Sequence record: OZ035815.1
DNA: 40,159 nt
From: Kayfunavirus MT1B1P3
Direction: 5' to 3' (one strand)
In this document: in pieces, positions 3,300 to 39,883 of the stretch
Position numbering within the stretch: the first letter of the stretch is position 1
How the letters are laid out: every line of letters begins with the position of its first letter
Notes under the pieces: generated by a model
What the model saw: only the letters and a program-made list of their open reading frames with translations
What the model was told of the DNA's origin: nothing
Database searches by the model: none
Made by a program: the position numbers and the translations under genes

Positions 3300-3535
3300 T
3301 CTCACAGTTCAAGAACCTCAAGTCTCCCCATAGGCCCTCTTTAAGTCCAGACCAAAGGCCCTACCCGTTACTACTCCTTGCAGTCACAGCCAGTCTGTCA
3401 TAAGGTTGGACCGATGGTCAGGACTTCAGGTCAACGATAGGTCTAGGCTATGGCTTATGGAAGGACGATAGGTAGAGGCTATAGGTCTTCTTTGAGTCTC
3501 TATCTGTATAGTGTTATAGTATAACATTACGTCCT
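3300..3535. other. inferred physical genome left end and collapsed terminal repeat
   Basis: tctcacagttcaagaacctcaagtctccccatagg at 3300 resembles the recalled T7 left-end sequence (TCTCACAGTGTACGGACCTAAAGTTCCCCCATAGG); flanked by cctacag-type short repeats on both sides, as in the T7 concatemer junction; exact boundaries not determinable. Confidence 0.4.
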
Positions 3536-3538
3536 ACA

Positions 3539-3662
3539 CCTACAGTCTCACTAACCTACAGTCTCACTAACCTACAGTCTCACTAACCTACAGTCTCACT
3601 AACCTACAGTCTCACTAACCTACAGTCTCACTAACCTACAGTCTCACTAACCTACAGTCTCA
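3539..3662. repeat. tandem array of a 16-bp unit (cctacagtctcactaa), 7 full copies plus one partial
   Basis: counted directly: units at 3539, 3555, 3571, 3587, 3603, 3619, 3635 and a partial at 3651-3662; analogous in position to the T7 short-repeat array next to the terminal repeat. Confidence 0.9.
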
Positions 3663-3952: not shown

Positions 3953-3982
3953 TTGACAAGAAGTATATAATTAAAGTATTAT
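3953..3982 (+). promoter_or_regulatory. candidate host sigma70 early promoter (A2-like)
   Basis: TTGACA -35, 18-bp spacer, TATTAT -10. Confidence 0.4.
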
Positions 3983-6391: not shown

Positions 6392-6398
6392 TTATGAC

Positions 6399-6419
6399 TT
6401 AACTATCACTTTAGGACTA
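6399..6419 (+). promoter_or_regulatory. degenerate phage-promoter-like sequence upstream of gene 1
   Basis: ttaactatcactttaggac: matches the consensus except A to T at -3; function uncertain. Confidence 0.2.
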
Positions 6420-6488: not shown

Positions 6489-9170
6489 ATGAGCGTCATC
6501 TCTATTGATAAACACGACTTCTCTGATGTGTCGAACGCCATTGAGCCGTTTAACCTGCTGGCTGACCACTACGGGAAGGACCTTGCAGTCAAGCAGCTTC
6601 AGCTTGAGCATGAGGCATACACTGAAGGCGAGCGACGTTTCATCAAAAACCTTGAGCGACAGACTGAGCGCGGGGAACTGGCAGACAATCAGGTCGCCAA
6701 GCCTTTGATGCAGACTCTGGTTCCTAAGATTGCGCAAGCCGTCAGGGAGTGGTATGAAGGTCCAGACGGGAAGCTTTCAACCTCTCGTCCTAGCGTAGCG
6801 TTCACCATGTTAAGCACCGAAGAGAAGGCCGTCAAGGACCGCTCTCTGCGTATCCCTTGCGAGTCTGCTGCGGTCATCATACTGAAGGTCATACTCTCCA
6901 AGCTGGTAAAGCCTGAAGGGATACCGATTACACCGATGGCCTCCGCGATAGGTCGCACACTTGAGGACGAAATCCGCTTCGGTCGCATCCGTGACAAAGA
7001 GAAAGAGCACTTCAAGAAGGCGATAGCTGATAACCTGAATAAGCGGGCCGGGGCGTCCTACAAGAAAGCCTACATGCAAGCGGTCGAGACATCCATGCTG
7101 GAGCAAGGCCAACTGGAAGATGCGTGGGGAACTTGGAGTCCTACAGAGGCTGTCCACGTTGGCATCAAGATGCTTGAGATTGTCATCCAGTCAACACAAC
7201 TGGTCGAGCTTAAGCGGTACGGTGCTGGCAATGCAGCGGCTGACGTAGAGATGGTCCACCTGTCAGACTTCTGGGTCAAGAAGATGGCACAACGAGGATT
7301 CAGCCTTGCGGGTATAGCTCCAGTCTACCAGCCTTGCGTCGTTCCACCTAAGCCGTGGACTGGTGTCGTAGGTGGTGGGTACTGGGCCAAAGGTCGCAGA
7401 CCGCTACCCCTGATTCGCTTAGGGTCTAAATCAGCGGTGGCACGTTATGAAGACGTATACATGCCTGAAGTCTATGACGCTGTGAATATCATCCAGAATA
7501 CACCTTGGAAAGTGAACAAGAAGGTACTGGACGTGGTGAACATGGTCGAGAAGTTGAACAACACGCCTATTGATGACATCCCTCAGATGGAGCCACTGAA
7601 GCCTGAAGACTATGCGGGTGAGACTGAGGAGGAACTCAAGGCATGGAAGAAGGCTGCTGCTGGTATCTATCGCCGCGAGAAGGCCCGACAGTCGCGAAGA
7701 TTGTCACTGAGCTTTATCGTTAACCAAGCGAACAAGTTCTCTCAGTTCAAGGCCATCTGGTTCCCGTACAACATGGACTGGCGTGGGCGCGTCTACGCTG
7801 TTCCGATGTTCAACCCTCAGGGTAACGACATGCAGAAAGGTCTCCTTACTCTGGCAGTCGGTAAGCCTATTGGTGCTGACGGTTTCAAATGGCTGAAGGT
7901 CCATGGTGCAAACTGCGCGGGTGTTGATAAAGTCACCTTCGAGGAGCGCATCAAGTGGGTGGAAGACAACCACGACAACATTATGGCTGCTGCTAAGGCA
8001 CCGATGGATAGCATTGAGTGGTGGGGCAAGTTAGACTCTCCGTTCTGCTTCCTTGCGTTCTGCTTCGAGTATGCTGGTGTAATGCACCACGGATTGTCTT
8101 ACTCCTGCTCATTACCGATAGCGTTCGATGGGTCATGCTCAGGGATTCAGCACTTTAGCGCGATGCTTCGTGATCACATAGGTGGACATGCAGTAAACCT
8201 AACGCCTTCCGGTAAGGTCCAAGACATCTACCGAATCGTGTCCGACCGCATTGAGGAAGAGCTTAAAGTCCTGCTGGTTAACGGCACAGACAACGAGATG
8301 GTAACTCACGAGGACAAGAAAACTGGTGAGATTACCGAACGCCTCAAGCTGGGGACACGAGAGCTGGCCCGGCAGTGGCTGACTTACGGCATGTCACGCA
8401 AGGTCACTAAGCGTTCAGTAATGACTCTGGCCTATGGGTCGAAAGAGTACGGCTTCGCAGACCAAGTTTATGAGGACATCGTGATGCCGGCGATTGACTC
8501 AGGGTCTGGCGCTATGTTCACCGAACCAAGCCAAGCGTCCCGCTTCATGGCTAAGATGATTTGGGAAGCTGTGAGCGTGACCGTAGTTGCTGCGGTTGAC
8601 GCGATGAAGTGGCTTCAGGGTGCTGCCAAGCTGCTGGCTGCTGAAGTGAAGGACAAGAAGACTGGAGAAATACTGAAGCCTTGCCTTCCGGTACACTGGG
8701 TAACACCTGATGGTTTCCCGGTCTGGCAGGAATACCGCAAGAAGGATACCACTCGTCTGAATCTGATGTTCTTAGGGTCATTCAACCTTCAGCCTACGGT
8801 CAACAAAGGCACGAAGAAAGAGCTGGACAAGCACAAGCAGGAGTCAGGCATTAGCCCGAACTTCGTCCACTCACAAGATGGTAGCCACCTACGCAAGACT
8901 GTAGTCCACACGCACCGCAAGTATGGCGTGATGTCCTTCGCAGTGATTCACGATAGCTTCGGGACCATCCCGGCTGACGCTGAGTATCTGTTCCGTGGCG
9001 TCCGTGAGACGATGGTCGAGACCTACCGCGATAACGATGTGCTGCTTGACTTCTACGAGCAGTTTGAATACCAGCTTCACGAGAGCCAGCGCGACAAGTT
9101 GCCTGAGCTTCCGAAGAAAGGTAAACTGAATATCGAAGACATCTTGTCTTCAGACTTTGCATTCGCGTAA
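6489..9170 (+). CDS. 1: DNA-directed RNA polymerase, single-subunit (T7 gp1-like)
   Basis: 893-aa ORF; conserved T7 RNAP blocks recognised (TLAYGSKEYGF, PNFVHSQDGSHLRKTVV, VIHDSFGT, final FAFA); size matches T7 RNAP (883 aa). Confidence 0.97.
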   Translation: MSVISIDKHDFSDVSNAIEPFNLLADHYGKDLAVKQLQLEHEAYTEGERRFIKNLERQTERGELADNQVAKPLMQTLVPKIAQAVREWYEGPDGKLSTSRPSVAFTMLSTEEKAVKDRSLRIPCESAAVIILKVILSKLVKPEGIPITPMASAIGRTLEDEIRFGRIRDKEKEHFKKAIADNLNKRAGASYKKAYMQAVETSMLEQGQLEDAWGTWSPTEAVHVGIKMLEIVIQSTQLVELKRYGAGNAAADVEMVHLSDFWVKKMAQRGFSLAGIAPVYQPCVVPPKPWTGVVGGGYWAKGRRPLPLIRLGSKSAVARYEDVYMPEVYDAVNIIQNTPWKVNKKVLDVVNMVEKLNNTPIDDIPQMEPLKPEDYAGETEEELKAWKKAAAGIYRREKARQSRRLSLSFIVNQANKFSQFKAIWFPYNMDWRGRVYAVPMFNPQGNDMQKGLLTLAVGKPIGADGFKWLKVHGANCAGVDKVTFEERIKWVEDNHDNIMAAAKAPMDSIEWWGKLDSPFCFLAFCFEYAGVMHHGLSYSCSLPIAFDGSCSGIQHFSAMLRDHIGGHAVNLTPSGKVQDIYRIVSDRIEEELKVLLVNGTDNEMVTHEDKKTGEITERLKLGTRELARQWLTYGMSRKVTKRSVMTLAYGSKEYGFADQVYEDIVMPAIDSGSGAMFTEPSQASRFMAKMIWEAVSVTVVAAVDAMKWLQGAAKLLAAEVKDKKTGEILKPCLPVHWVTPDGFPVWQEYRKKDTTRLNLMFLGSFNLQPTVNKGTKKELDKHKQESGISPNFVHSQDGSHLRKTVVHTHRKYGVMSFAVIHDSFGTIPADAEYLFRGVRETMVETYRDNDVLLDFYEQFEYQLHESQRDKLPELPKKGKLNIEDILSSDFAFA

Positions 9171-9644: not shown

Positions 9645-9720
9645 CAGACCTACAGTCACTGGCCTTGTGGCTAGGAGCACTCGCAGTATTCACTTTAATC
9701 CAACGCAGAAGAGGTTAACC

Positions 9721-9740
9721 CTAAACTATCACTATAGGAT
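9721..9740 (+). promoter_or_regulatory. phage RNAP promoter (phi1.1-like)
   Basis: ctaaactatcactataggat matches consensus. Confidence 0.65.
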
Positions 9741-9785
9741 TAGACTCAAGGTCATGACTCAAAGTCGTGGCCTTCATGATTAACC
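9741..9785 (+). promoter_or_regulatory. putative RNase III site (R1.1-like)
   Basis: tagactcaaggtcat...gtggccttcatgattaacc; resembles T7 R1.1 (aaggtcaatgagtggcctttatgattgacctt) from memory. Confidence 0.4.
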
Positions 9786-11339: not shown

Positions 11340-11349
11340 CTAAATTTCA

Positions 11350-11388
11350 ACCCAGTGGTCTTAGCGGACTGCTGGGTTTCTTTGCTTT
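11350..11388 (+). terminator. rho-independent terminator after ligase (TE-like, for host RNAP)
   Basis: hairpin acccagtggtc / gactgctgggt (11-bp stem with 2 G-U pairs, 6-nt loop) followed by tttctttgctttg. Confidence 0.55.
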
Positions 11389-11423: not shown

Positions 11424-11445
11424 CCCTAAGCTATCACTATAGGAC
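11424..11445 (+). promoter_or_regulatory. phage RNAP promoter
   Basis: cctaagctatcactataggaca; consensus core with upstream variation. Confidence 0.55.
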
Positions 11446-11471
11446 AACCATCAACAACCTAAGGAGACTCT

Positions 11472-12469: not shown

Positions 12470-12628
12470 ATGACCGAGGTTGAGAAGAAATACATCGTGG
12501 AGCTTGAGGGTCGAGTTCAGTCCTTCGAGGTTCCGGTGTACGCAAAGTCTCTTGAAGAGGCTACCCTGAAGTCCCAAGAGTATGAGGACGCTGGTTTTGT
12601 TGTCGGACGGATTCGTCCTGAGACCTAA
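12470..12628 (+). CDS. 2: inhibitor of host RNA polymerase (T7 gp2-like)
   Basis: [14 protein letters not shown]...GFVVGRIRP matches recalled T7 gp2 (SFEVPIYAETLDEA...GFEVTRVRP); ATG at 12470 has SD aaggag 9 nt upstream; ORF track extends to 12392 but without SD. Confidence 0.7.
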
Positions 12629-12645
12629 ACTATCACTGTAGGACA
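12624..12645 (+). promoter_or_regulatory. phage RNAP promoter variant (phi2.5-like)
   Basis: cctaaactatcactGtaggaca: one substitution at -3; gp2 stop codon is embedded in it. Confidence 0.45.
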
Positions 12646-12685
12646 GACGTCCAGTTCGTAACTTTAAATTAGGAGATGTACACCA

Positions 12686-14778: not shown

Positions 14779-14994
14779 ATGATTAAAATTATCGAATTTC
14801 TTGGTCGTCTGGTGGTGCGTGGGTATCGTCGTGCTGCGGTACTGGAACGAAAGGTAGAAAAGAAGAATGCGGACGGTGCGGCTGATGCTGCTGCTCTGGC
14901 TGACAAGCTGACCATCGCGTCACTGGAAGCTGGAATGAAGGCTCGTCAGGCTGATACCAAAGCTGACCAGTTGGCTCAGTTCTTCAAAGCCTAA
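14779..14994 (+). CDS. hypothetical protein (71 aa)
   Basis: ORF with SD (taagggag) upstream; Ala/Lys-rich; not similar to T7 gp3.8. Confidence 0.4.
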   Translation: MIKIIEFLGRLVVRGYRRAAVLERKVEKKNADGAADAAALADKLTIASLEAGMKARQADTKADQLAQFFKA

Positions 14995-15012
14995 ACTATC
15001 ACCTTAGGGATG
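14991..15012 (+). promoter_or_regulatory. phage RNAP promoter variant before gene 4
   Basis: ctaaactatcacCTtagggatg: two substitutions (-4, -3) relative to consensus; followed by hairpin gggaca...tgtccc. Confidence 0.4.
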
Positions 15013-20733: not shown

Positions 20734-20860
20734 TCTACTGGGCAGGACTTCTGGCCCTTTACTGCATGTACAAGTGGTTCGGGTCGAACAACCGCCCTAA
20801 ACACTGAGTCTAACCGATAGTCATATCCTATTAATCCCACAGTCATCCATAGGTGAAACA

Positions 20861-20883
20861 CTAAACTATCACTATAGGGACTT
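20861..20883 (+). promoter_or_regulatory. phage RNAP promoter (phi6.5-like)
   Basis: ctaaactatcactatagggactt matches consensus. Confidence 0.65.
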
Positions 20884-20943
20884 TAGGACCTAAGATATGA
20901 CTATAAGATAGACTTTAGTCTTAACTTAAAGAGGAGATTCAAG

Positions 20944-22137: not shown

Positions 22138-23706
22138 ATGGCTGAACGTGAAGGGTTCGCTGCTGAAGGGGCCAAAGCGGTCTATGACCGACTGAAGAAC
22201 GGTAGACAGCCATATGAGACACGCGCTCAGAATTGTGCTGCTGTCACTATCCCGTCACTGTTTCCTAAGGAGTCCGACAACTCGTCTACTGAGTACACCA
22301 CTCCGTGGCAAGCTGTAGGTGCTCGATGTTTGAACAACTTGGCTGCAAAGCTGATGTTGGCATTATTCCCCCAGTCACCGTGGATGCGACTTACAGTCTC
22401 CGAATATGAGGCTAAGACCTTGAGTCAGGACTCAGAGGCTGCTGCTCGTGTTGACGAGGGGCTTGCTATGGTCGAGCGTGTGTTGATGGCCTACATGGAG
22501 ACAAACAGTTTCCGTGTTCCATTGTTCGAAGCTCTGAAGCAGCTTATAGTCTCCGGTAACTGTCTGCTCTACATTCCAGAGCCTGAACAGGGAACCTACA
22601 GTCCCATGCGAATGTACCGCTTAGTGTCTTACGTTGTTCAACGTGATGCGTTCGGTAACATCTTGCAGATTGTGACTCTCGACAAGGTAGCGTTTAGTGC
22701 TCTACCGGAAGACGTGAAGTCTCAACTCAACGCAGACGACTATGAGCCTGACACCGAGCTGGAAGTGTATACGCACATTTACCGTCAGGACGACGAGTAT
22801 CTACGCTACGAGGAAGTGGAAGGCATTGAGGTAGCAGGGACCGATGGTTCTTACCCACTGACTGCCTGTCCATACATCCCGGTACGAATGGTTCGACTGG
22901 ACGGTGAAGACTATGGGCGCTCTTATTGCGAGGAGTATCTGGGAGACCTGAACTCGCTGGAGACGATTACAGAAGCTATCACCAAAATGGCTAAGGTAGC
23001 CTCCAAAGTGGTGGGCCTCGTTAACCCGAACGGTATCACGCAACCTCGTCGTCTGAATAAGGCGGCTACAGGTGAGTTCGTGGCTGGTCGCGTTGAGGAC
23101 ATCAACTTTCTGCAACTGACGAAAGGTCAGGACTTTACGATTGCTAAATCGGTGGCTGACGCTATCGAGCAACGTCTAGGCTGGGCCTTCCTTCTCAATA
23201 GTGCTGTTCAGCGTAATGCCGAGCGAGTCACTGCCGAAGAGATTCGTTATGTTGCTGGCGAACTGGAGGCGACCTTAGGTGGCGTGTATTCAGTACAGTC
23301 ACAAGAGCTTCAGTTACCTATCGTCCGTGTGCTGATGAACCAACTTCAGTCTGCTGGCATGATTCCTGACCTTCCGAAAGAAGCGGTAGAGCCTACTGTC
23401 TCAACTGGTCTGGAAGCTCTGGGCCGTGGTCAGGACTTGGAGAAGCTGACTCAGGCGGTTAACATGATGACTGGTCTTCAGCCGCTATCTCAGGACCCGG
23501 ACATCAATTTGCCGACCCTTAAGCTGCGACTCCTGAACGCTCTGGGCATCGACACCGCTGGCCTACTCCTGACGCAAGACGAGAAGATTCAGCGCATGGC
23601 AGAGCAGTCGTCTCAACAGGCAGTTGTCCAAGGTGCTAGTGCTGCTGGTGCTAACATGGGTGCTGCTGTAGGTCAGGGAGCTGGTGAGGACATGGCTCAA
23701 GCCTAA
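22138..23706 (+). CDS. 8: head-tail connector / portal protein (T7 gp8-like)
   Basis: extensive recalled identity to T7 gp8 (YETRAQNCA, IPSLFPK, TPWQAVGAR.LNNLA.KLMLALFP, YRLVSYVVQRDAFGN, VRMVRLDGEDYGRSY.EEYLGDL, RVTAEEIRYVA.ELE). Confidence 0.95.
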   Translation: MAEREGFAAEGAKAVYDRLKNGRQPYETRAQNCAAVTIPSLFPKESDNSSTEYTTPWQAVGARCLNNLAAKLMLALFPQSPWMRLTVSEYEAKTLSQDSEAAARVDEGLAMVERVLMAYMETNSFRVPLFEALKQLIVSGNCLLYIPEPEQGTYSPMRMYRLVSYVVQRDAFGNILQIVTLDKVAFSALPEDVKSQLNADDYEPDTELEVYTHIYRQDDEYLRYEEVEGIEVAGTDGSYPLTACPYIPVRMVRLDGEDYGRSYCEEYLGDLNSLETITEAITKMAKVASKVVGLVNPNGITQPRRLNKAATGEFVAGRVEDINFLQLTKGQDFTIAKSVADAIEQRLGWAFLLNSAVQRNAERVTAEEIRYVAGELEATLGGVYSVQSQELQLPIVRVLMNQLQSAGMIPDLPKEAVEPTVSTGLEALGRGQDLEKLTQAVNMMTGLQPLSQDPDINLPTLKLRLLNALGIDTAGLLLTQDEKIQRMAEQSSQQAVVQGASAAGANMGAAVGQGAGEDMAQA

Positions 23707-23723
23707 ACTATCACTATAGGAAC
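23702..23723 (+). promoter_or_regulatory. phage RNAP promoter (phi9-like)
   Basis: cctaaactatcactataggaac; portal stop codon embedded. Confidence 0.65.
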
Positions 23724-23814
23724 AACACAACTTGAGTGAGTGAACGCATAGCCAGCCGTAACGGGAGGGCAGGTTGTTGTGTTTCCTATTAACGACTTAA
23801 AGGAGAATGACTTA

Positions 23815-24699: not shown

Positions 24700-24701
24700 G
24701 A

Positions 24702-24723
24702 CTAAACTATCACTATAGGGAGA
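24702..24723 (+). promoter_or_regulatory. phage RNAP promoter (phi10-like, full consensus)
   Basis: ctaaactatcactatagggaga, identical to T7 consensus from -7 to +6 (CACTATAGGGAGA). Confidence 0.7.
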
Positions 24724-26000: not shown

Positions 26001-26004
26001 TTGA

Positions 26005-26043
26005 AACCCCTTGGGTGCCTTCGGGTGCTTGAGGGGTTTTTTG
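26005..26043 (+). terminator. phage RNAP terminator (Tphi-like) after capsid gene
   Basis: aaccccttgggtgccttcgggtgcttgaggggttttttg: GC-rich hairpin plus T-run, very similar to recalled T7 Tphi. Confidence 0.8.
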
Positions 26044-29319: not shown

Positions 29320-29344
29320 CTTATTGAAGGGCCTATAGATTTAC

Positions 29345-29365
29345 CTTAACTATCACTATAGGGAC
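29345..29365 (+). promoter_or_regulatory. phage RNAP promoter (phi13-like)
   Basis: cttaactatcactatagggac; sits inside a 12-bp inverted repeat. Confidence 0.65.
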
Positions 29366-29395
29366 TATAGGCCCTTAAGGTTATAAGGAGACTTT

Positions 29396-32736: not shown

Positions 32737-35700
32737 ATGGCGACTCGTGGTATTCGCAATAACAATCCTGGTAATATACGGGTAAGTAAGGACCAATGGG
32801 AAGGAATGACTGGAGATGATGGCGCCTTCGTCACCTTCGATAGTCCAGAGTCTGGCGTCCGAGCTTTAGGTAAAAACCTGCTGTCCTACGGTCGCCAAGG
32901 TTATGACTCCATCGAGAAGATTATCAACAGATGGGCGCCTCCTAACGAGAATGACACTAAGGCTTATATTGACTCAGTGGTGGCTGCAACTGGTATTCCA
33001 GCTACCCAGAGTCTCGACCTATCGAACCCTGACACCCTGTCTGCTCTGGCGCAAGCTATTAGCTTCCATGAGACAGGCTCCCGGTACAATCCTGAAGTCT
33101 ATCAGAAGGGAGTCGAAAGAGCACTTAACGGCATTAGCCCAAAGACTCCACCAGTAAGCGCTAACGTATTTGACGCACTCACGGAAGGACTCAAGGCTAA
33201 ACCTAAAGTAGCTCTGGGTGAGAACCTTCCGACCGCTGCTGGTCTAAACATTGAGGGTCAAGCACCTGAAGCTCCCAACGAATCGTTCGGTGAGATGTTC
33301 TATAAGTCTACTGGCGAGACCATGCAGGAACGAGAGGATCGCTCTACGTGGTTCGGTTTCGGCGCGGCTACAGAAGCTGAAGTGAAGAACTCTATGGTCG
33401 GCGTGGCTATCCGCGCTGGTCAGACCGAGGACTCACTTGATGTCATTGGCGATGTGTTCAACCCTACCCGCTGGAACAACCATAAGTGGTCTCGTGAGGA
33501 GCTGGACCAGATTCGTAACGCTGGAGTTCTCCCTCAGTATTACGGTGTCATTACGGGTGGCTCTCCTCAGAACCTGACTGAGCTTATTAACTTGGCGCTT
33601 GAGAACCAGAAGTTGGACCAAGAGAAGGCCAAGGCTGGGACTGGTGCTCAGCTAGCAGCTGGTGTGATTGGTGCTGGTGTAGACCCGCTGACCTATGTTC
33701 CTATCGCTGGACAGGTTGGCAAAGGTGCGAAGCTAGTCAACAAGATGTTCACCGTGGCTGCTCAATCTGGAGCACTTGCTGGTGTATCAGAGATGGCCCG
33801 TACCTCAGTGGCTGGTGGGGATGCTCATGTGGCTGAAGCTATCCTTGGTGGTGCTCTCTTTGGTGGTGGTATGACTGCCATCGCTGATGGGTTAGGCAGA
33901 GCCTTAGGTCGCAACACTAATGAGTTTGCTGGCCCAGCTACACGTCTGGAAGCTCGTGAGACCGCTCGTAACGTTGATGGTCAGGACCTGTCTCGTCTTC
34001 CTATTCAGGAAGGTGAGCAGACCTTTAGTCATCAAGGCGTTAAGTTCGCTGACGTTCCTAATGAGCCGGGAAGTGTACGATTAGAAGATGGTTCAATCCT
34101 GATTGGTGAGAACCCTCTGAACCCTAAGACACGTCAAGTCTTCGACGAAGTGATTGAGCCAGAACGTGCCGCTGCTGGTGTGAACCTTGGTGGACTTACC
34201 GAGATTGGCCTGAAGCTGCTTCGGTCTGATAACCCTGAGATTCGTGGAGTAGCTGCTGACTTAGTACGTTCACCGACTGGTATGCAGTCTGGGGCCTCAG
34301 GTAAAATAGGGACAACTGCGTCAGACGTGTTCGAGAGGCTTCGTGCTGTGGACCATCGGTTCTACAACGACATCGACGATGCGGTTACTGAGGCACTAAA
34401 GGACCCGTACTTCCAGACAGCATTCTGGCGAGACTCTGGAGCATTCCGTCAGGACATCTACCAGCGCGTGTCTATGGCTATCGAAGATGGCAGCGGAAAC
34501 CTGAAGGCTGAACTGACTCCGGGAGAACTTAAAGTCTATGACCTACTGAAGAACCAGTTTGACGCCAAGCGTGAGATGATGGAGAACCCAGCTATGTTTG
34601 GTCGGTCAGATGCTCAGTCTATCTTTCCGGGTAGCCGCTTCAAGGGAACCTACGTCCCTCATGTGTATAGCAAACAGATGAAGGAGCTGTACACCAAGGA
34701 GCTTGGGAGTCCAGAGGCGTTGCAGGAGGCCATCAAGAAGTCATGGTTGACCAGCTATGCGTCTCGACCTGAAGTCAAGAAACGCGTGGACGAGGCACTC
34801 TTAGAGTCTGACCCTACGTTGACTCCAGAAGGGCTTGCGGCTGCGGTCGATAAGTACGCCAACGATAAGGCTTACGGTATCTCCCACACCGAGCAGTTCG
34901 AACGTTCATCCGTAATGGAAGAGAACATCAACGGTCTGGTTGGTCTGGAGAACAACAGCTTCCTTGAGGCTCGTAACCTGTTCGATAGCGATATGTCAAT
35001 CGTCCTGCCTAACGGTCAGACCTTCAGTGTCAACAACCTGCGTGAGTGGGACATGGACAAGATTGTCCCGGCATACAACCGTCGAGTTAATGGTGACATT
35101 GCTATTATGGCTGGTACAGGCAAGACAACGAAAGAAATGAAGGACTTGGTTGAGACCATGATGAACAAGGCTGGTGATGACGGAAAGTTGAAAGGTGAAG
35201 TATCTACCTTGCGTGACACACTGAAGATTCTAACTGGTCGTTCTCGACGTGATGGGGCTGACGATGCAGCCTTCGCTGCCGTGATGCGCACAATGACAGA
35301 CCTATCGTTCTTCGCTAAGAATGCCTATATGGGTGTTCAGAACTTAACGGAGATTGGTGGTATGCTGGCCCGTGGTAACGTTCGCGCAATGCTGCATGGA
35401 GTCCCAATTTTCCGTGACCTAGCCTTCCGTAACAAGAAAGTTGGGGCCTCAGAGATTAAGGACCTGCACAATGTTATCTTTGGTAAGGAGCTGGATGACT
35501 CAATCCGTCCGTCTAAACAGGATGTCATTGACCGTCTGCGATCTTACAGTGACCTCGGTCGTGGTGCAGCTACAGCTCTGGGGACTGCCAAGTATTACAC
35601 TGGCGAACTTGCAGTACGCTCTCCGTTCACTAAAGTCCTCAACGGTACGACCAACTACCTGTTAGATGCTGGACGTCAAGGCTTCCTGTCTGACATCGTG

Positions 35701-36624
35701 GAGCATAGCCTGACTGGTAGTAAGCGTAAGTTCGATGACCGCTGGCTGAAGACCGCTGGTATCTCTGACGAGCAGTGGAAGGGCATTAAGTCCCTAATCC
35801 GTGAGTCAGTGACTCGTGGTCCAGACGGGAAGTATACCATCAAGGATAAGAAGGCGTTCAGTCAGGACCCAAGGGCTATGGACCTATGGCGTATGGGTGA
35901 CACCATCGCTGACGAAACGTTACTCCGGCCCCACAAGCTGTCCAACATGGACGCCAAGGCTTATGGTCCTCTCGCTAAGACTGTCCTTCAGTTTAAGAAC
36001 TTCGTCATCAAGTCCATCAATGGACGTACCATGCGAACCTTCTATAACGCCACGAAGAACAACCGAGCGATGGACGCTGCCTTGTCCACTGTGATGTCTA
36101 TGGGTCTGGCTGGTATCTACTACATGGCTCAGGCGCACGTCAAGGCTTACGCTATGCAGGATGGTCGAGACCGTGACTACCTCAAGCAAGCTCTAGACCC
36201 GACGATGATTGGATATGCAGCTCTATCACGTAGTTCACATCTTGGTGGACCACTTGGGGTAGCTAACATTCTGGGTGGCATCGCTGGGTATGAGGACACT
36301 AAGATGCTCCGTTCGTCTATCCTACCTCGTTCGCCTACAGAGAAGCCTGAACGTGCCATCGCGTATGGTGCAGCTACAAGTGGCCCTGTGATGAATGTTG
36401 TTGGTAACTTCTTGGAGCAGGTTCCAGCTTTCGGATATGCTGCTAACGTTGGCGCTTCGGCTTACAACTTGGCTGGCTACCTCAAGGCGGATACTCGTGT
36501 CAACGAGCGTGACTACATGACCGGGATGTATAATACGTTCCGTGAACTGGTTCCGAACGACCCAATTACCCAGAAGCTGTTGCTTGGAACGTTTGAGGAG
36601 CAAGGTATCCACATCAAGGACTAA
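32737..36624 (+). CDS. 16: internal virion protein D with N-terminal peptidoglycan-hydrolase domain (T7 gp16-like)
   Basis: 1295 aa (T7 gp16 1318 aa); position; largest core protein. Confidence 0.9.
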   Translation: MATRGIRNNNPGNIRVSKDQWEGMTGDDGAFVTFDSPESGVRALGKNLLSYGRQGYDSIEKIINRWAPPNENDTKAYIDSVVAATGIPATQSLDLSNPDTLSALAQAISFHETGSRYNPEVYQKGVERALNGISPKTPPVSANVFDALTEGLKAKPKVALGENLPTAAGLNIEGQAPEAPNESFGEMFYKSTGETMQEREDRSTWFGFGAATEAEVKNSMVGVAIRAGQTEDSLDVIGDVFNPTRWNNHKWSREELDQIRNAGVLPQYYGVITGGSPQNLTELINLALENQKLDQEKAKAGTGAQLAAGVIGAGVDPLTYVPIAGQVGKGAKLVNKMFTVAAQSGALAGVSEMARTSVAGGDAHVAEAILGGALFGGGMTAIADGLGRALGRNTNEFAGPATRLEARETARNVDGQDLSRLPIQEGEQTFSHQGVKFADVPNEPGSVRLEDGSILIGENPLNPKTRQVFDEVIEPERAAAGVNLGGLTEIGLKLLRSDNPEIRGVAADLVRSPTGMQSGASGKIGTTASDVFERLRAVDHRFYNDIDDAVTEALKDPYFQTAFWRDSGAFRQDIYQRVSMAIEDGSGNLKAELTPGELKVYDLLKNQFDAKREMMENPAMFGRSDAQSIFPGSRFKGTYVPHVYSKQMKELYTKELGSPEALQEAIKKSWLTSYASRPEVKKRVDEALLESDPTLTPEGLAAAVDKYANDKAYGISHTEQFERSSVMEENINGLVGLENNSFLEARNLFDSDMSIVLPNGQTFSVNNLREWDMDKIVPAYNRRVNGDIAIMAGTGKTTKEMKDLVETMMNKAGDDGKLKGEVSTLRDTLKILTGRSRRDGADDAAFAAVMRTMTDLSFFAKNAYMGVQNLTEIGGMLARGNVRAMLHGVPIFRDLAFRNKKVGASEIKDLHNVIFGKELDDSIRPSKQDVIDRLRSYSDLGRGAATALGTAKYYTGELAVRSPFTKVLNGTTNYLLDAGRQGFLSDIVEHSLTGSKRKFDDRWLKTAGISDEQWKGIKSLIRESVTRGPDGKYTIKDKKAFSQDPRAMDLWRMGDTIADETLLRPHKLSNMDAKAYGPLAKTVLQFKNFVIKSINGRTMRTFYNATKNNRAMDAALSTVMSMGLAGIYYMAQAHVKAYAMQDGRDRDYLKQALDPTMIGYAALSRSSHLGGPLGVANILGGIAGYEDTKMLRSSILPRSPTEKPERAIAYGAATSGPVMNVVGNFLEQVPAFGYAANVGASAYNLAGYLKADTRVNERDYMTGMYNTFRELVPNDPITQKLLLGTFEEQGIHIKD

Positions 36625-36642
36625 ACTATCACTATAGGAAAC
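36621..36642 (+). promoter_or_regulatory. phage RNAP promoter (phi17-like)
   Basis: ctaaactatcactataggaaac; gp16 stop codon embedded. Confidence 0.65.
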
Positions 36643-36688: not shown

Positions 36689-39600
36689 ATGTCCACGATT
36701 ACACAATTCCCTTCAGGAAACACTCAGTACAGGATTGAGTTCGACTACCTAGCCAGAACGTTTATTGTTGTTACGCTGGTGAATAGCTCTAACCCTACCC
36801 TAAACCGTGTACTGGAAGTTGGTCGAGATTACCGATTCCTTAATCCAACGATGATTGAGATGTTGGTTGACCAATCAGGTTTCGACATCGTTCGTATTCA
36901 CCGTCAGACTGGAACTGACTTAGTGGTAGACTTCAGGAATGGCTCAGTGTTGACAGCTAGTGACCTGACTAATTCAGAGCTTCAGGCTATCCATATTGCA
37001 GAAGAAGGTCGAGACCAAACGGTTGACTTAGCGAAGGAATATGCCGATGCTGCTAGTAGCTCTGCTGGCAACGCTAAGGATAGCGAGGACGAAGCACGAC
37101 GAATCGCTGAGAGTATCAGGGAAGCTGGTAGACTTGGCTATATTACCCGTCGCTCCTTCGAGAAAGGCTACAACGTTACAACATGGAGCGAGGTCCTGCT
37201 ATGGGAAGAGGATGGTGATTATTACCGCTGGGATGGTACGCTTCCAAAGAACGTTCCTGCTGGTTCAACTCCTGAAACTTCCGGTGGGATTGGATTAGGT
37301 GCGTGGGTTAGTGTTGGTGATGCTGCTTTAAGAAGTCAGATTTCAAATCCTGAAGGGGCAATACTCTACCCTGAATTACATAGAGCACGCTGGCTTGATG
37401 AAAAAGATGTTCGTGGTTGGGGTGCTAAAGGTGATGGCGTCACTGATGATACAGCAGCGTTAACGAGCGCATTAAACGACATACCGGTTGGACAAAAGAT
37501 TAATGGCAATGGGAAGACATATAAGGTCACATCCCTACCTGACATTAGTCGCTTCATCAACACTCGTTTCGTTTATGAGCGCATTCCCGGACAACCTCTT
37601 TATTATGCCTCTGAGGAATTTGTTCAGGGTGAGTTGTTCAAAATAACGGACACCCCTTATTACAATGCGTGGCCTCAGGATAAAGCGTTCGTATATGATA
37701 ATGTGATATATGCACCTTACATGGGTAGCGATCGTCATGGTGTTAGTCGTCTGCATGTATCATGGGTTAAGTCTGGTGATGATGGTCAAACATGGTCTAC
37801 TCCAGAGTGGCTAACTGATCTGCATCCAGATTACCCTACAGTGAACTATCACTGTATGAGTATGGGTGTATGTCGCAACCGTCTGTTTGCCATGATTGAA
37901 ACACGTACTTTAGCCAAGAACGCATTAACCAATTGTGCATTATGGGATCGCCCCATGTCTCGTAGCCTGCATCTTACTGGTGGTATCACTAAAGCTGCAA
38001 ATCAGCAATATGCAACAATACATGTACCAGACCACGGACTATTCGTGGGTGATTTTGTTAACTTCTCTAATTCTGCGGTAACAGGTGTATCCGGTGATAT
38101 GACTGTTGCAACCGTAATAGATAAGGACAACTTCACGGTTCTTACACCCAACCAGCAGACTTCAGATTTGAATAACGCTGGAAAGAATTGGCACATGGGT
38201 ACGTCTTTCCATAAGTCTCCATGGCGTAAGACAGACCTTGGTCTAATCCCTCGTGTCACAGAGGTGCATAGCTTTGCTACTATTGATAACAATGGCTTTG
38301 TTATGGGTTATCATCAAGGCGATGTAGCTCCACGCGAAGTTGGGCTTTTCTACTTCCCTGACGCTTTCAATAGCCCATCTAGTTATGTTCGCCGTCAGAT
38401 ACCATCTGAGTATGAACCAGATGCGTCAGAGCCGTGCATAAAGTACTATGACGGTGTATTATACCTTATCACTCGTGGCACTCGTGGGGATAGGCTAGGT
38501 AGCTCTTTGCATCGTAGTAGAGACATAGGTCAGACTTGGGAGTCACTGAGATTTCCACATAATGTTCATCATACTACATTACCTTTTGCTAAAGTAGGGG
38601 ATGACCTTATTATGTTTGGTTCAGAACGTGCAGAAAATGAATGGGAAGCAGGTGCACCAGATGATCGTTACAAGGCATCTTATCCTCGCACCTTCTATGC
38701 ACGATTGAATGTAAACAATTGGAATGCAGATGATATTGAATGGGTTAACATCACTGACCAGATTTATCAGGGCGGAATAGTTAACTCAGGTGTAGGTGTT
38801 GGTTCGGTAGTTGTGAAGGATAATTACATCTACTACATGTTTGGTGGAGAGGACCATTTTAACCCATGGACCTATGGAGATAACTCAGCGAAGGACCCAT
38901 TCAAAGCGGATGGTCATCCCTCAGATTTGTATTGCTACAAAATGAAGATTGGCCCAAGCAATCATGTTTCCCGTGATTTCAGGTATGGTGCTGTACCTAA
39001 CAGAGCTGTTCCCGTGTTTTTTGATACGAATGGGATTCGCACTGTTCCTGCACCAATGGAATTTACAGGGGATTTGGGTTTAGGTCATGTGACCCTTAGA
39101 GCCAGCACCAGTAGTAACATTCGCTCTGAAGTTTTAATGGAAGGTGAATATGGGTTTATCGGGAAGTCTATACCGACTGATAACCCGGCAGGGCAGCGCA
39201 CCATATTTTGCGGAGGTGAAGGCACCAGTTCAACGACTGGCGCACAGATTACGCTTTATGGTGCAAATAACACAGACTCAAGGCGAATAGTTTACAATGG
39301 TGATGAGCATCTGTTCCAGACTGCTGACGTTAAGCCTTATAACGATAACGTCATTGCGCTTGGTGGACCAAGTAACCGTTTCACAACTGCATATCTCGGA
39401 AGCAACCCTATTGTTACTTCTAATGGGGAGAAGAAAACAGAGCCGGTAGTTTTTGATGATGCTTTCCTAGATGCCTGGGGTGACGTTCACTACATCATGT
39501 ATCAATGGTTAGATGCTGTTCAACTGAAAGGCAATGATGCTCGTATTCACTTCGGGGTTATTGCTCAGCAAATTCGTGATGTATTCATTGCACACGGTCT

Positions 39601-39883
39601 GATGGATGAAAACAGTACGAATTGTCGTTATGCCGTTCTGTGCTATGACAAGTATCCACGGATGACCGATACGGTATTTTCGCACAATGAAATCATTGAA
39701 CACACTGACGAGGAGGGTAATGTCACTACTACGGAAGAGCCTGTATTCACTGAGGTGGTTATCCATGAAGAGGGTGAGGAGTGGGGTGTTCGGCCTGACG
39801 GAATTTTCTTTGCTGAAGCCGCTTATCAGAGAAGAAAACTGGAAAGAATCGAAGCCAGACTTTCTGCTCTTGAACAGAAGTAA
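36689..39883 (+). CDS. 17: tail fibre/tailspike: T7 gp17-like N-terminal adaptor fused to endosialidase-like catalytic region and C-terminal intramolecular chaperone (peptidase S74-like) domain
   Basis: 1064 aa versus 553 in T7; N-terminus (FDYLARTFIVVTL...DYRF) resembles T7 gp17 N-terminal domain; remainder and C-terminal block (DAWGDVHYIMYQWLDAV...IHFGVIAQQI) recalled as K1F endosialidase and its C-terminal chaperone domain; marked drop in GC and change in codon use from about 37300. Confidence 0.85.
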   Translation: MSTITQFPSGNTQYRIEFDYLARTFIVVTLVNSSNPTLNRVLEVGRDYRFLNPTMIEMLVDQSGFDIVRIHRQTGTDLVVDFRNGSVLTASDLTNSELQAIHIAEEGRDQTVDLAKEYADAASSSAGNAKDSEDEARRIAESIREAGRLGYITRRSFEKGYNVTTWSEVLLWEEDGDYYRWDGTLPKNVPAGSTPETSGGIGLGAWVSVGDAALRSQISNPEGAILYPELHRARWLDEKDVRGWGAKGDGVTDDTAALTSALNDIPVGQKINGNGKTYKVTSLPDISRFINTRFVYERIPGQPLYYASEEFVQGELFKITDTPYYNAWPQDKAFVYDNVIYAPYMGSDRHGVSRLHVSWVKSGDDGQTWSTPEWLTDLHPDYPTVNYHCMSMGVCRNRLFAMIETRTLAKNALTNCALWDRPMSRSLHLTGGITKAANQQYATIHVPDHGLFVGDFVNFSNSAVTGVSGDMTVATVIDKDNFTVLTPNQQTSDLNNAGKNWHMGTSFHKSPWRKTDLGLIPRVTEVHSFATIDNNGFVMGYHQGDVAPREVGLFYFPDAFNSPSSYVRRQIPSEYEPDASEPCIKYYDGVLYLITRGTRGDRLGSSLHRSRDIGQTWESLRFPHNVHHTTLPFAKVGDDLIMFGSERAENEWEAGAPDDRYKASYPRTFYARLNVNNWNADDIEWVNITDQIYQGGIVNSGVGVGSVVVKDNYIYYMFGGEDHFNPWTYGDNSAKDPFKADGHPSDLYCYKMKIGPSNHVSRDFRYGAVPNRAVPVFFDTNGIRTVPAPMEFTGDLGLGHVTLRASTSSNIRSEVLMEGEYGFIGKSIPTDNPAGQRTIFCGGEGTSSTTGAQITLYGANNTDSRRIVYNGDEHLFQTADVKPYNDNVIALGGPSNRFTTAYLGSNPIVTSNGEKKTEPVVFDDAFLDAWGDVHYIMYQWLDAVQLKGNDARIHFGVIAQQIRDVFIAHGLMDENSTNCRYAVLCYDKYPRMTDTVFSHNEIIEHTDEEGNVTTTEEPVFTEVVIHEEGEEWGVRPDGIFFAEAAYQRRKLERIEARLSALEQK

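Follow-up and report, generated by a model that had tools for sequence, protein, structure and literature searches.

The major capsid gene of Kayfunavirus MT1B1P3 (sequence record OZ035815.1) is preceded by a short motif, flagged at positions 24,702 to 24,723, that resembles a T7 promoter around the predicted start of transcription and departs from it further upstream. This locus raises the question of whether the motif belongs to a promoter family read by a phage RNA polymerase with a specificity of its own. We followed it through the whole sequenced stretch of 40,159 nucleotides (hereafter the window), where it occurs eleven times. The eleven motifs are almost certainly the promoters at which a K1F-group phage (Kayfunavirus) is transcribed by its own single-subunit RNA polymerase. 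As such the system is already known: it is the published K1F promoter/polymerase system, found here in a close relative of K1F. What is said below of promoter use, start sites and relative strengths in Mt1B1_P3 is argued from its relatives and from T7, and is phrased as prediction.

Eleven copies of one promoter motif

The 10-kb stretch around the flagged copy matches Escherichia phage Mt1B1_P3 (MT496969.1; Kayfunavirus, K1F group) at 100% identity and phage ASO2B (vB_EcoA_ASO2B) at 99.5%, and 175 phage records match it with at least 80% coverage. In orientation the window corresponds to MT496969 reverse-complemented, circularised and rotated, with a 202-bp terminal repeat at 3300-3501. Just inside this repeat, at 3538-3662, a 16-bp unit (ACCTACAGTCTCACTA) stands in 7.8 perfect tandem copies. 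The window is longer than MT496969 by 48 bp, equal to three 16-bp units of the array beginning at 3538, and this excess next to the genome left end is either a copy-number difference or an assembly difference. Gene order follows that of T7, with early genes, RNA polymerase (6489-9170), DNA-metabolism genes and structural genes, then genes for lysis and packaging. No regulatory features, neither promoters nor terminators, are listed in GenBank MT496969.

A search of the whole window on both strands with the motif TAAACTATCACTATAGG, allowing up to three mismatches, returned 12 matches, all on the plus strand, against 0.04 expected by chance from shuffled sequences. Eleven of them, with zero to two mismatches, start at 2701, 6399, 9722, 11427, 12626, 14992, 20862, 23704, 24703, 29346 and 36622. 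These are the eleven sites listed in the preliminary description of this DNA, all of them on the coding strand and with coordinates that agree to within 0-3 bp. A weight matrix built from the eleven copies gave each of them a score of 31.8-37.5 bits, with 14.7 and 13.3 bits for the two highest-scoring sites after them. Given this gap, the family has exactly eleven members. Further copies, such as a phiOL-like promoter near the left end or any on the minus strand, were sought by scanning both strands with the matrix, and no site besides the eleven exceeded 15 bits.

Two weaker candidates were rejected. The twelfth match (AGTGAACTATCACTGTATGAGTA, 37842-37858; 23-mer 37840-37862) has three mismatches including T at +1, scores 13.3 bits and falls within the tail-spike gene, and is unlikely to be a promoter. 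The same weak match is also present in ASO2B. The 14.7-bit site is a degenerate copy (CCTAAGATATGACTATAAGATAG, 20889-20911) located 29 nt downstream of the phi6.5 start, and was not counted as a member. It is kept in K1F, PE3-1 and ASO2B, and the leader around it does not fold unusually (z = -0.07). It could be what is left of a duplicated promoter, or belong to a processing site.

With +1 set at the first G of the GG start (24718 in the flagged copy), the consensus from -17 reads (A/C)CT(A/T)AACTATCACTATAGG(G/A). Positions -16, -15, -13, -11 to -5, -2, -1, +1 and +2 are invariant in all eleven copies. Variation falls at -12 (A in 10 of 11, with G in the copy at 11427), at -14 (A in 8, T in 3) and at -17 (A or C); the first two of these were absent from the preliminary description. 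The initiation core TCACTATAGG (-8 to +2) is exact in 8 of 11 copies and differs in the other three at -4, -3 or both. The binding region of the K1F type, A-C-T-A-T at -12 to -8 of the published K1F consensus, is likewise near constant, with CTAT at -11 to -8 in every copy and A at -12 in ten. The description had set C, T and A at -11, -10 and -9 against G, A and C in T7 (TAATACGACTCACTATAGGGAGA), and this is true of all eleven copies. Its broader statement that -12 to -8 differs from T7 stands for -12 to -9 (CGAC in T7, ACTA here) but not for -8, which is T in both; beyond what its title covered, -17 to -14 also differ (TAAT in T7, (A/C)CT(A/T) here). Its claim that the best copy equals T7 from -7 to +6 was slightly conservative, as the 23-mer at 24701-24723 matches T7 from -8 to +6.

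All eleven copies point downstream and are either intergenic or overlap the end of a gene, with 30-186 nt to the next start codon. The first in the window is phiOR-like (2699-2721, predicted +1 at 2716; ACTTAACTATCACTATAGGGAAG) and follows the terminase gene gp19, before a gp19.5-like ORF and the genome right end. The same site is found in K1F (+1 at 38869), PE3-1 and ASO2B, and a K1F-consensus promoter is annotated there in ASO2B. The copy that we call phi1 (6397-6419, predicted +1 at 6414; ACTTAACTATCACTTTAGGACTA), with T at -3, lies 75 nt upstream of the RNA polymerase start codon (6489). A phi1.1-like promoter (9720-9742, predicted +1 at 9737; CCTAAACTATCACTATAGGATTA), identical in sequence in K1F, PE3-1 and ASO2B, precedes the gp1.1/1.2/ligase block, and is followed by the phi1.6-like copy (11425-11447, predicted +1 at 11442; CCTAAGCTATCACTATAGGACAA), which is the -12G variant. 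Next come phi2.5 (12624-12646, predicted +1 at 12641; CCTAAACTATCACTGTAGGACAG), with G at -3, and phi4 (14990-15012, predicted +1 at 15007; CCTAAACTATCACCTTAGGGATG), with C at -4 and T at -3, upstream of the primase/helicase gene.

The putative late promoters begin with phi6.5 (20860-20882, predicted +1 at 20877; ACTAAACTATCACTATAGGGACT), the first of class III type, and continue with phi9 (23702-23724, predicted +1 at 23719; CCTAAACTATCACTATAGGAACA). The flagged copy is phi10 (24701-24723, predicted +1 at 24718; ACTAAACTATCACTATAGGGAGA) and is annotated as a promoter in both PE3-1 and ASO2B. Its 108-nt leader before the major capsid gene has a 5'-terminal stem-loop (GGGAGACC...GGUUUCCC) and a fold of -27.5 kcal/mol (z = -3.4), better than 200 of 200 shuffles. 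Upstream of the internal virion protein genes lies phi13 (29344-29366, predicted +1 at 29361; CCTTAACTATCACTATAGGGACT), which is kept in every relative examined. The last copy, phi17 (36620-36642, predicted +1 at 36637; ACTAAACTATCACTATAGGAAAC), precedes a tail-spike gene of endosialidase type. This gene (36689-39883, 1064 aa) has the same length as K1F gp17 and is labelled 'hypothetical protein' in MT496969; its ASO2B homologue is annotated as similar to K1F endo-N-acetylneuraminidase, which suggests a K1-capsule-specific endosialidase.

Scanning with the window weight matrix recovered all eleven sites, with their order unchanged, in K1F (NC_007456), PE3-1 (KJ748011) and ASO2B (MZ726794). A pattern scan of IMG/VR found the motif in many contigs of about 40 kb among the matches listed, and flank-anchored alignment of each site showed every one of the eleven to be conserved in 15-21 loci among those matches. 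Within the same listed matches, all 21 related loci share an identical phi6.5, and 19 of 20 an identical phi17. Public annotation covers part of the set. In the ASO2B record nine sites carry the label 'similar to (A/C)CTAAACTATCACTATAGGRAAA ... K1F consensus (Scholl and Merril 2005)', and we use the K1F promoter consensus of Scholl and Merril (2005), (A/C)CTAAACTATCACTATAGGRAAA, in the form quoted in that record (MZ726794). The PE3-1 record annotates phi6.5, phi9 and phi10, and in Kayfunavirus Sparklingdew the consensus CTWAACTATCACTATAGG has been described at the 3' ends of coding sequences (PMC13298934). The use of the present set lies mainly in annotation: the record MT496969 could gain eleven promoter and two terminator features.

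The RNA polymerase and its specificity loop

Gene 1 (6489..9170, plus strand) encodes a single-subunit T7-like RNA polymerase of 893 aa (Pfam RNA_pol, E 1.5e-106, and RPOL_N) that matches T7 RNAP structures over its full length. It is 99.1% identical to the K1F RNAP, 64.0% to that of T7 and 63.8% to that of T3. Eight amino acids differ from the K1F enzyme, all in the N-terminal half and none in the specificity loop. The loop, encoded at 8721..8843 on the plus strand (VWQEYRKKDTTRLNLMFLGSFNLQPTVNKGTKKELDKHKQE; window residues 745-785, corresponding to T7 735-775), is 100% identical to that of K1F. When the loop was compared with those of T7 and T3, as the preliminary description had proposed, the hairpin corresponding to T7 Q744-I761 showed the changes Q744T, Q754S, R756N and I761V relative to T7, with R746, N748 and Q758 retained. 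The specificity of the T3 enzyme arises mainly through N748D, in contrast to the K1F type, which retains N748 and alters R756. From the T7 RNA polymerase structure of Cheetham, Jeruzalmi and Steitz of 1999, R756 is said to contact the -9 base pair and N748 the -11/-10 positions. Because R756 contacts the -9 base pair, R756N fits the change from C to A at -9.

Experiments on relatives of this enzyme bear on the same point. Temme et al. (2012) grafted the K1F hairpin (T7 Q744-I761) into T7 polymerase and swapped promoter positions -12 to -7, which produced an active pair (PMC3458549). The hairpin used in that graft is encoded at 8748-8801 of the window, and its sequence is the one encoded there. 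With its own promoter the T7(K1F) graft reached 17-fold induction, and it was reported to be orthogonal to the T7, T3 and N4 pairs; its promoter was a hybrid of T7 flanks and the K1F -12 to -7 segment rather than the native 23-mer (PMC3458549). A 2025 study found that non-cognate pairs of the grafted set kept appreciable activity, and placed T7-like RNAPs in nine specificity clusters, of which K1F is one (PMC11880802). The native polymerase of Ro45lw, another Kayfunavirus, transcribes in vitro from ACTTAACTATCACTATAGGGACT, with +1 mapped to G and a minimal promoter of ACTTAACTATCACTATAGGGA (PMC12272871, 2025). This minimal promoter equals the phiOR copy of the window from -17 to +4. The graft is a chimera and the Ro45lw enzyme that of a relative.

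The preliminary description had predicted an RNA polymerase with a distinct specificity, and this is supported. The loop is that of K1F and differs from T7 at residues that read -12 to -8, and the published graft of the same loop (PMC3458549) and the native Ro45lw enzyme (PMC12272871) agree. Weight matrices point the same way for the promoters: the T7 matrix found no match in the window, and the window matrix found none in T7. The T3 matrix gave one marginal match in the window, so that the link to T3 amounts to marginal scores only. Synthetic biology already uses the K1F promoter and its polymerase as a standard orthogonal part, and the determinants of their specificity have been studied.

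Promoter variants and predicted strength

Three copies carry substitutions at -4/-3, as the preliminary description had stated when it suggested that they may be attenuated: the copies starting at 6399 (phi1, -3T), 12626 (phi2.5, -3G) and 14992 (phi4, -4C/-3T). A barcoded library of T7 promoters scored by RNA/DNA read ratio gives a measure of what such changes do (PMC5937735, supplement). Wild type scored 142-188 in that library (mean about 169), -4C/-3T scored 3.6 (about 2% of wild type), -3T combined with -13T scored 29 against 192 for -13T alone (about 15%), and -3C scored 53-83 (PMC5937735). Since the window consensus and T7 agree from -8 to +2, these values can be applied here by analogy; on that basis strong attenuation would be expected of phi4, and moderate attenuation of phi2.5 and phi1.

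Both phi2.5 and phi4 also have features of the class II type, in that they deviate from the consensus, precede DNA-metabolism genes and retain their deviation in relatives. In the relatives examined (for IMG/VR, among the matches listed), the base at -3 of phi2.5 is G or T and never A. For phi4, C at -4 is found in 15 of 15 loci among the IMG/VR matches listed, within CACCTTA in 14 and CACCTAA in one, and CACCTTA is kept in K1F, PE3-1 and ASO2B. The -12G of phi1.6 is shared by K1F, PE3-1, ASO2B and most of the IMG/VR relatives among the matches listed. Conserved as they are in relatives, the deviations of phi2.5, phi4 and phi1.6 are therefore old and maintained, like those of T7 class II promoters. 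By analogy with the latter, phi2.5 and phi4 (at -4/-3) and phi1.6 (at -12) are probably weaker than the consensus promoters.

An alternative hypothesis is that the -4/-3 variants are products of neutral drift, equal in strength to the consensus, with no gradation of the class II/class III type. Such drift would be in keeping with the T7 library value for -2A (138-161, near wild type; PMC5937735), which indicates that not every change in the TATA segment matters, and with the restriction of phi1 -3T to the window and its closest relative ASO2B, as expected of a recent mutation; moreover, the argument for attenuation uses strength values of the T7 enzyme, not of a K1F-type polymerase. Against it stand the losses measured in that library for -4C/-3T and for -3T, where the accompanying -13T is neutral, and the pattern across relatives just described, with its constant C at phi4 -4 and the exclusion of A from phi2.5 -3. 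The late promoters, by comparison, keep the consensus and are almost invariant across the relatives examined (K1F, PE3-1, ASO2B and the IMG/VR matches listed), and in the class II promoters of T7 itself the deviations lie in this segment too. We therefore regard neutral drift as quite unlikely, and favor attenuation of the variant promoters.

The copy upstream of the polymerase gene differs from the other variants in its distribution. At this site the consensus CACTATAGG is found in K1F (+1 at 2491), PE3-1 and most of the IMG/VR relatives among the matches listed. The -3T form was found only in the window and ASO2B, and an exact search of IMG/VR for this variant returned 0 matches. The ASO2B record leaves the site unannotated. 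The PE3-1 record labels it 'host RNAP promoter' though its sequence, ACTTAACTATCACTATAGGACTC, is of the phage type, and judged by that sequence the label is a mislabel. The site is conserved across the genus and has no cognate counterpart in T7 or T3, where the nearest promoter upstream is phiOL at the left end. A literature search on Kayfunavirus promoters ahead of the polymerase gene found nothing relevant. It is conceivable, though on balance doubtful, that phi1 makes the polymerase gene a natural 'autogene' with positive feedback on polymerase synthesis, in an arrangement that has never been analysed functionally. In the T7 context -3T lowers activity about six-fold, and its presence at phi1 in the window and ASO2B could represent a tuning of the feedback gain. 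If measured, the natural -4/-3 variants, along with the promoter before the polymerase gene, could serve as a small existing set of graded strengths for K1F-type polymerases.

Proposed transcription scheme and comparison with K1F, T7 and T3

A rival reading takes the motif for a dispersed repeat that only resembles a T7 promoter and serves some other purpose, such as packaging, recombination or transcription by the host polymerase. The label on the PE3-1 copy before the polymerase gene would favor it, as would a weak 9/12 sigma-70 match that spans the flagged copy on the minus strand. This reading is highly improbable: the PE3-1 site carries the phage-type sequence, every copy is oriented with transcription and placed at T7-equivalent junctions, the -8 to +2 core equals that of T7, a native Kayfunavirus polymerase (Ro45lw) transcribes from the exact sequence (PMC12272871), and sigma-70-like matches are no more numerous than in shuffled sequence.

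If the motifs are cognate promoters, as we conclude, transcription of Mt1B1_P3 would proceed much as in T7. Host RNA polymerase would transcribe the early region, including gene 1, up to a TE-like terminator, as T7 and a strong sigma-70 match at 3953-3982 suggest. The phage polymerase would then bind each 23-bp promoter, with the hairpin of its specificity loop reading ACTAT (-12 to -8) in the major groove. Recognition of this kind has been demonstrated for a congeneric native enzyme and, in a T7 scaffold, for this very loop. TATA at -4 to -1 would be melted and RNA would start with G at +1, a start that has been shown for Ro45lw. Taking temporal classes from T7, the middle genes would be driven by phi1.1, phi1.6, phi2.5 and phi4, and the late genes by phi6.5, phi9, phi10, phi13, phi17 and phiOR. 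Consensus late promoters would thus serve the structural genes, and deviant promoters the middle genes at lower levels.

Two putative terminators fit this layout. The TE-like early terminator (11349..11378, plus strand) is a hairpin with a 13-bp stem and a T-run directly after the ligase gene. Its homologous position is annotated as a terminator in ASO2B, and TE of T7 likewise follows gene 1.3; by analogy with T7, the site is taken to mark the boundary between early and middle regions. The Tphi-like terminator (26003..26042, plus strand), which would stop the phage polymerase, has a 17-bp stem followed by six T and lies after the capsid gene, as does Tphi in T7, at a position annotated as a terminator in both ASO2B and PE3-1.

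Several promoters had been described as containing the stop codon of the upstream gene, and this is borne out in 4 of 11 copies, where TAA occupies -15 to -13. The stop of gp2 (12470-12628) lies at 12626-12628 in phi2.5, that of a 71-aa ORF (14779-14994) at 14992-14994 in phi4, that of the portal gene gp8 (22138-23706) at 23704-23706 in phi9, and that of gp16 (32737-36624) at 36622-36624 in phi17. In T7, 7 of 17 promoters hold the stop of the upstream gene at -17 to -15 (genes 1.2, 1.4, 1.5, 2, 4.2, 8 and 16), and in T3 genes 1.05, 1.2, 2 and 8 end inside a promoter in the same way. Stop codons inside promoters are thus not peculiar to Mt1B1_P3 and are common to T7 and T3. As the same junctions are involved, the overlaps gp2/phi2.5, gp8/phi9 and gp16/phi17 are therefore orthologous across three promoter types, with only the register of TAA moved from -17 to -15 in T7 to -15 to -13 in the window. 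The four TAA-bearing promoters reflect genome compaction inherited from a common ancestor with T7 and T3.

Beyond these stops, the likeness to T7 extends through most of the system. T7 likewise has a 23-bp promoter with the same -8 to +2 core, laid out as an upstream binding region, a TATA melting region and a GG start, and has TE and Tphi where the window has their putative counterparts. It shares the stops inside phi2.5, phi9 and phi17, the same polymerase domains, and promoter variants before DNA-metabolism genes, which are weaker in T7 and probably so here. The window junctions at or next to which T7 or T3 has a promoter are those of 1.1, 1.6, 2.5, 6.5, 9, 10, 13, 17 and OR. Promoter number differs, with seventeen in T7 against eleven in the window, which is without a phiOL-like copy near the left end.

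The T3 promoter (AATTAACCCTCACTAAAGGGAGA) has A at -12 and C at -11, as in the K1F type, and the same layout, with stops inside phi2.5 and phi9. It differs at -10/-9 (CC in T3, TA here) and at -2 (A in T3, T here). The position of phi4 before the primase/helicase gene is comparable to that of T3 phi3.8. T3 also carries a perfect T7-type promoter after gene 16 (32757-32779) that is annotated as unused by the T3 polymerase. Such a case illustrates that recombination can leave a promoter of one type alongside a polymerase of another. A foreign-type promoter like it was not found in the window.

K1F is a close relative of Mt1B1_P3. With the same gene order, 6 of its 11 promoters are identical 23-mers to those of the window, including phi2.5 with its -3G, and phi4 shares -4C/-3T and differs only at -17. 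At phi1, K1F has the consensus where the window has -3T, with a further difference at +6, and at phiOR the two phages differ from +3 to +6.
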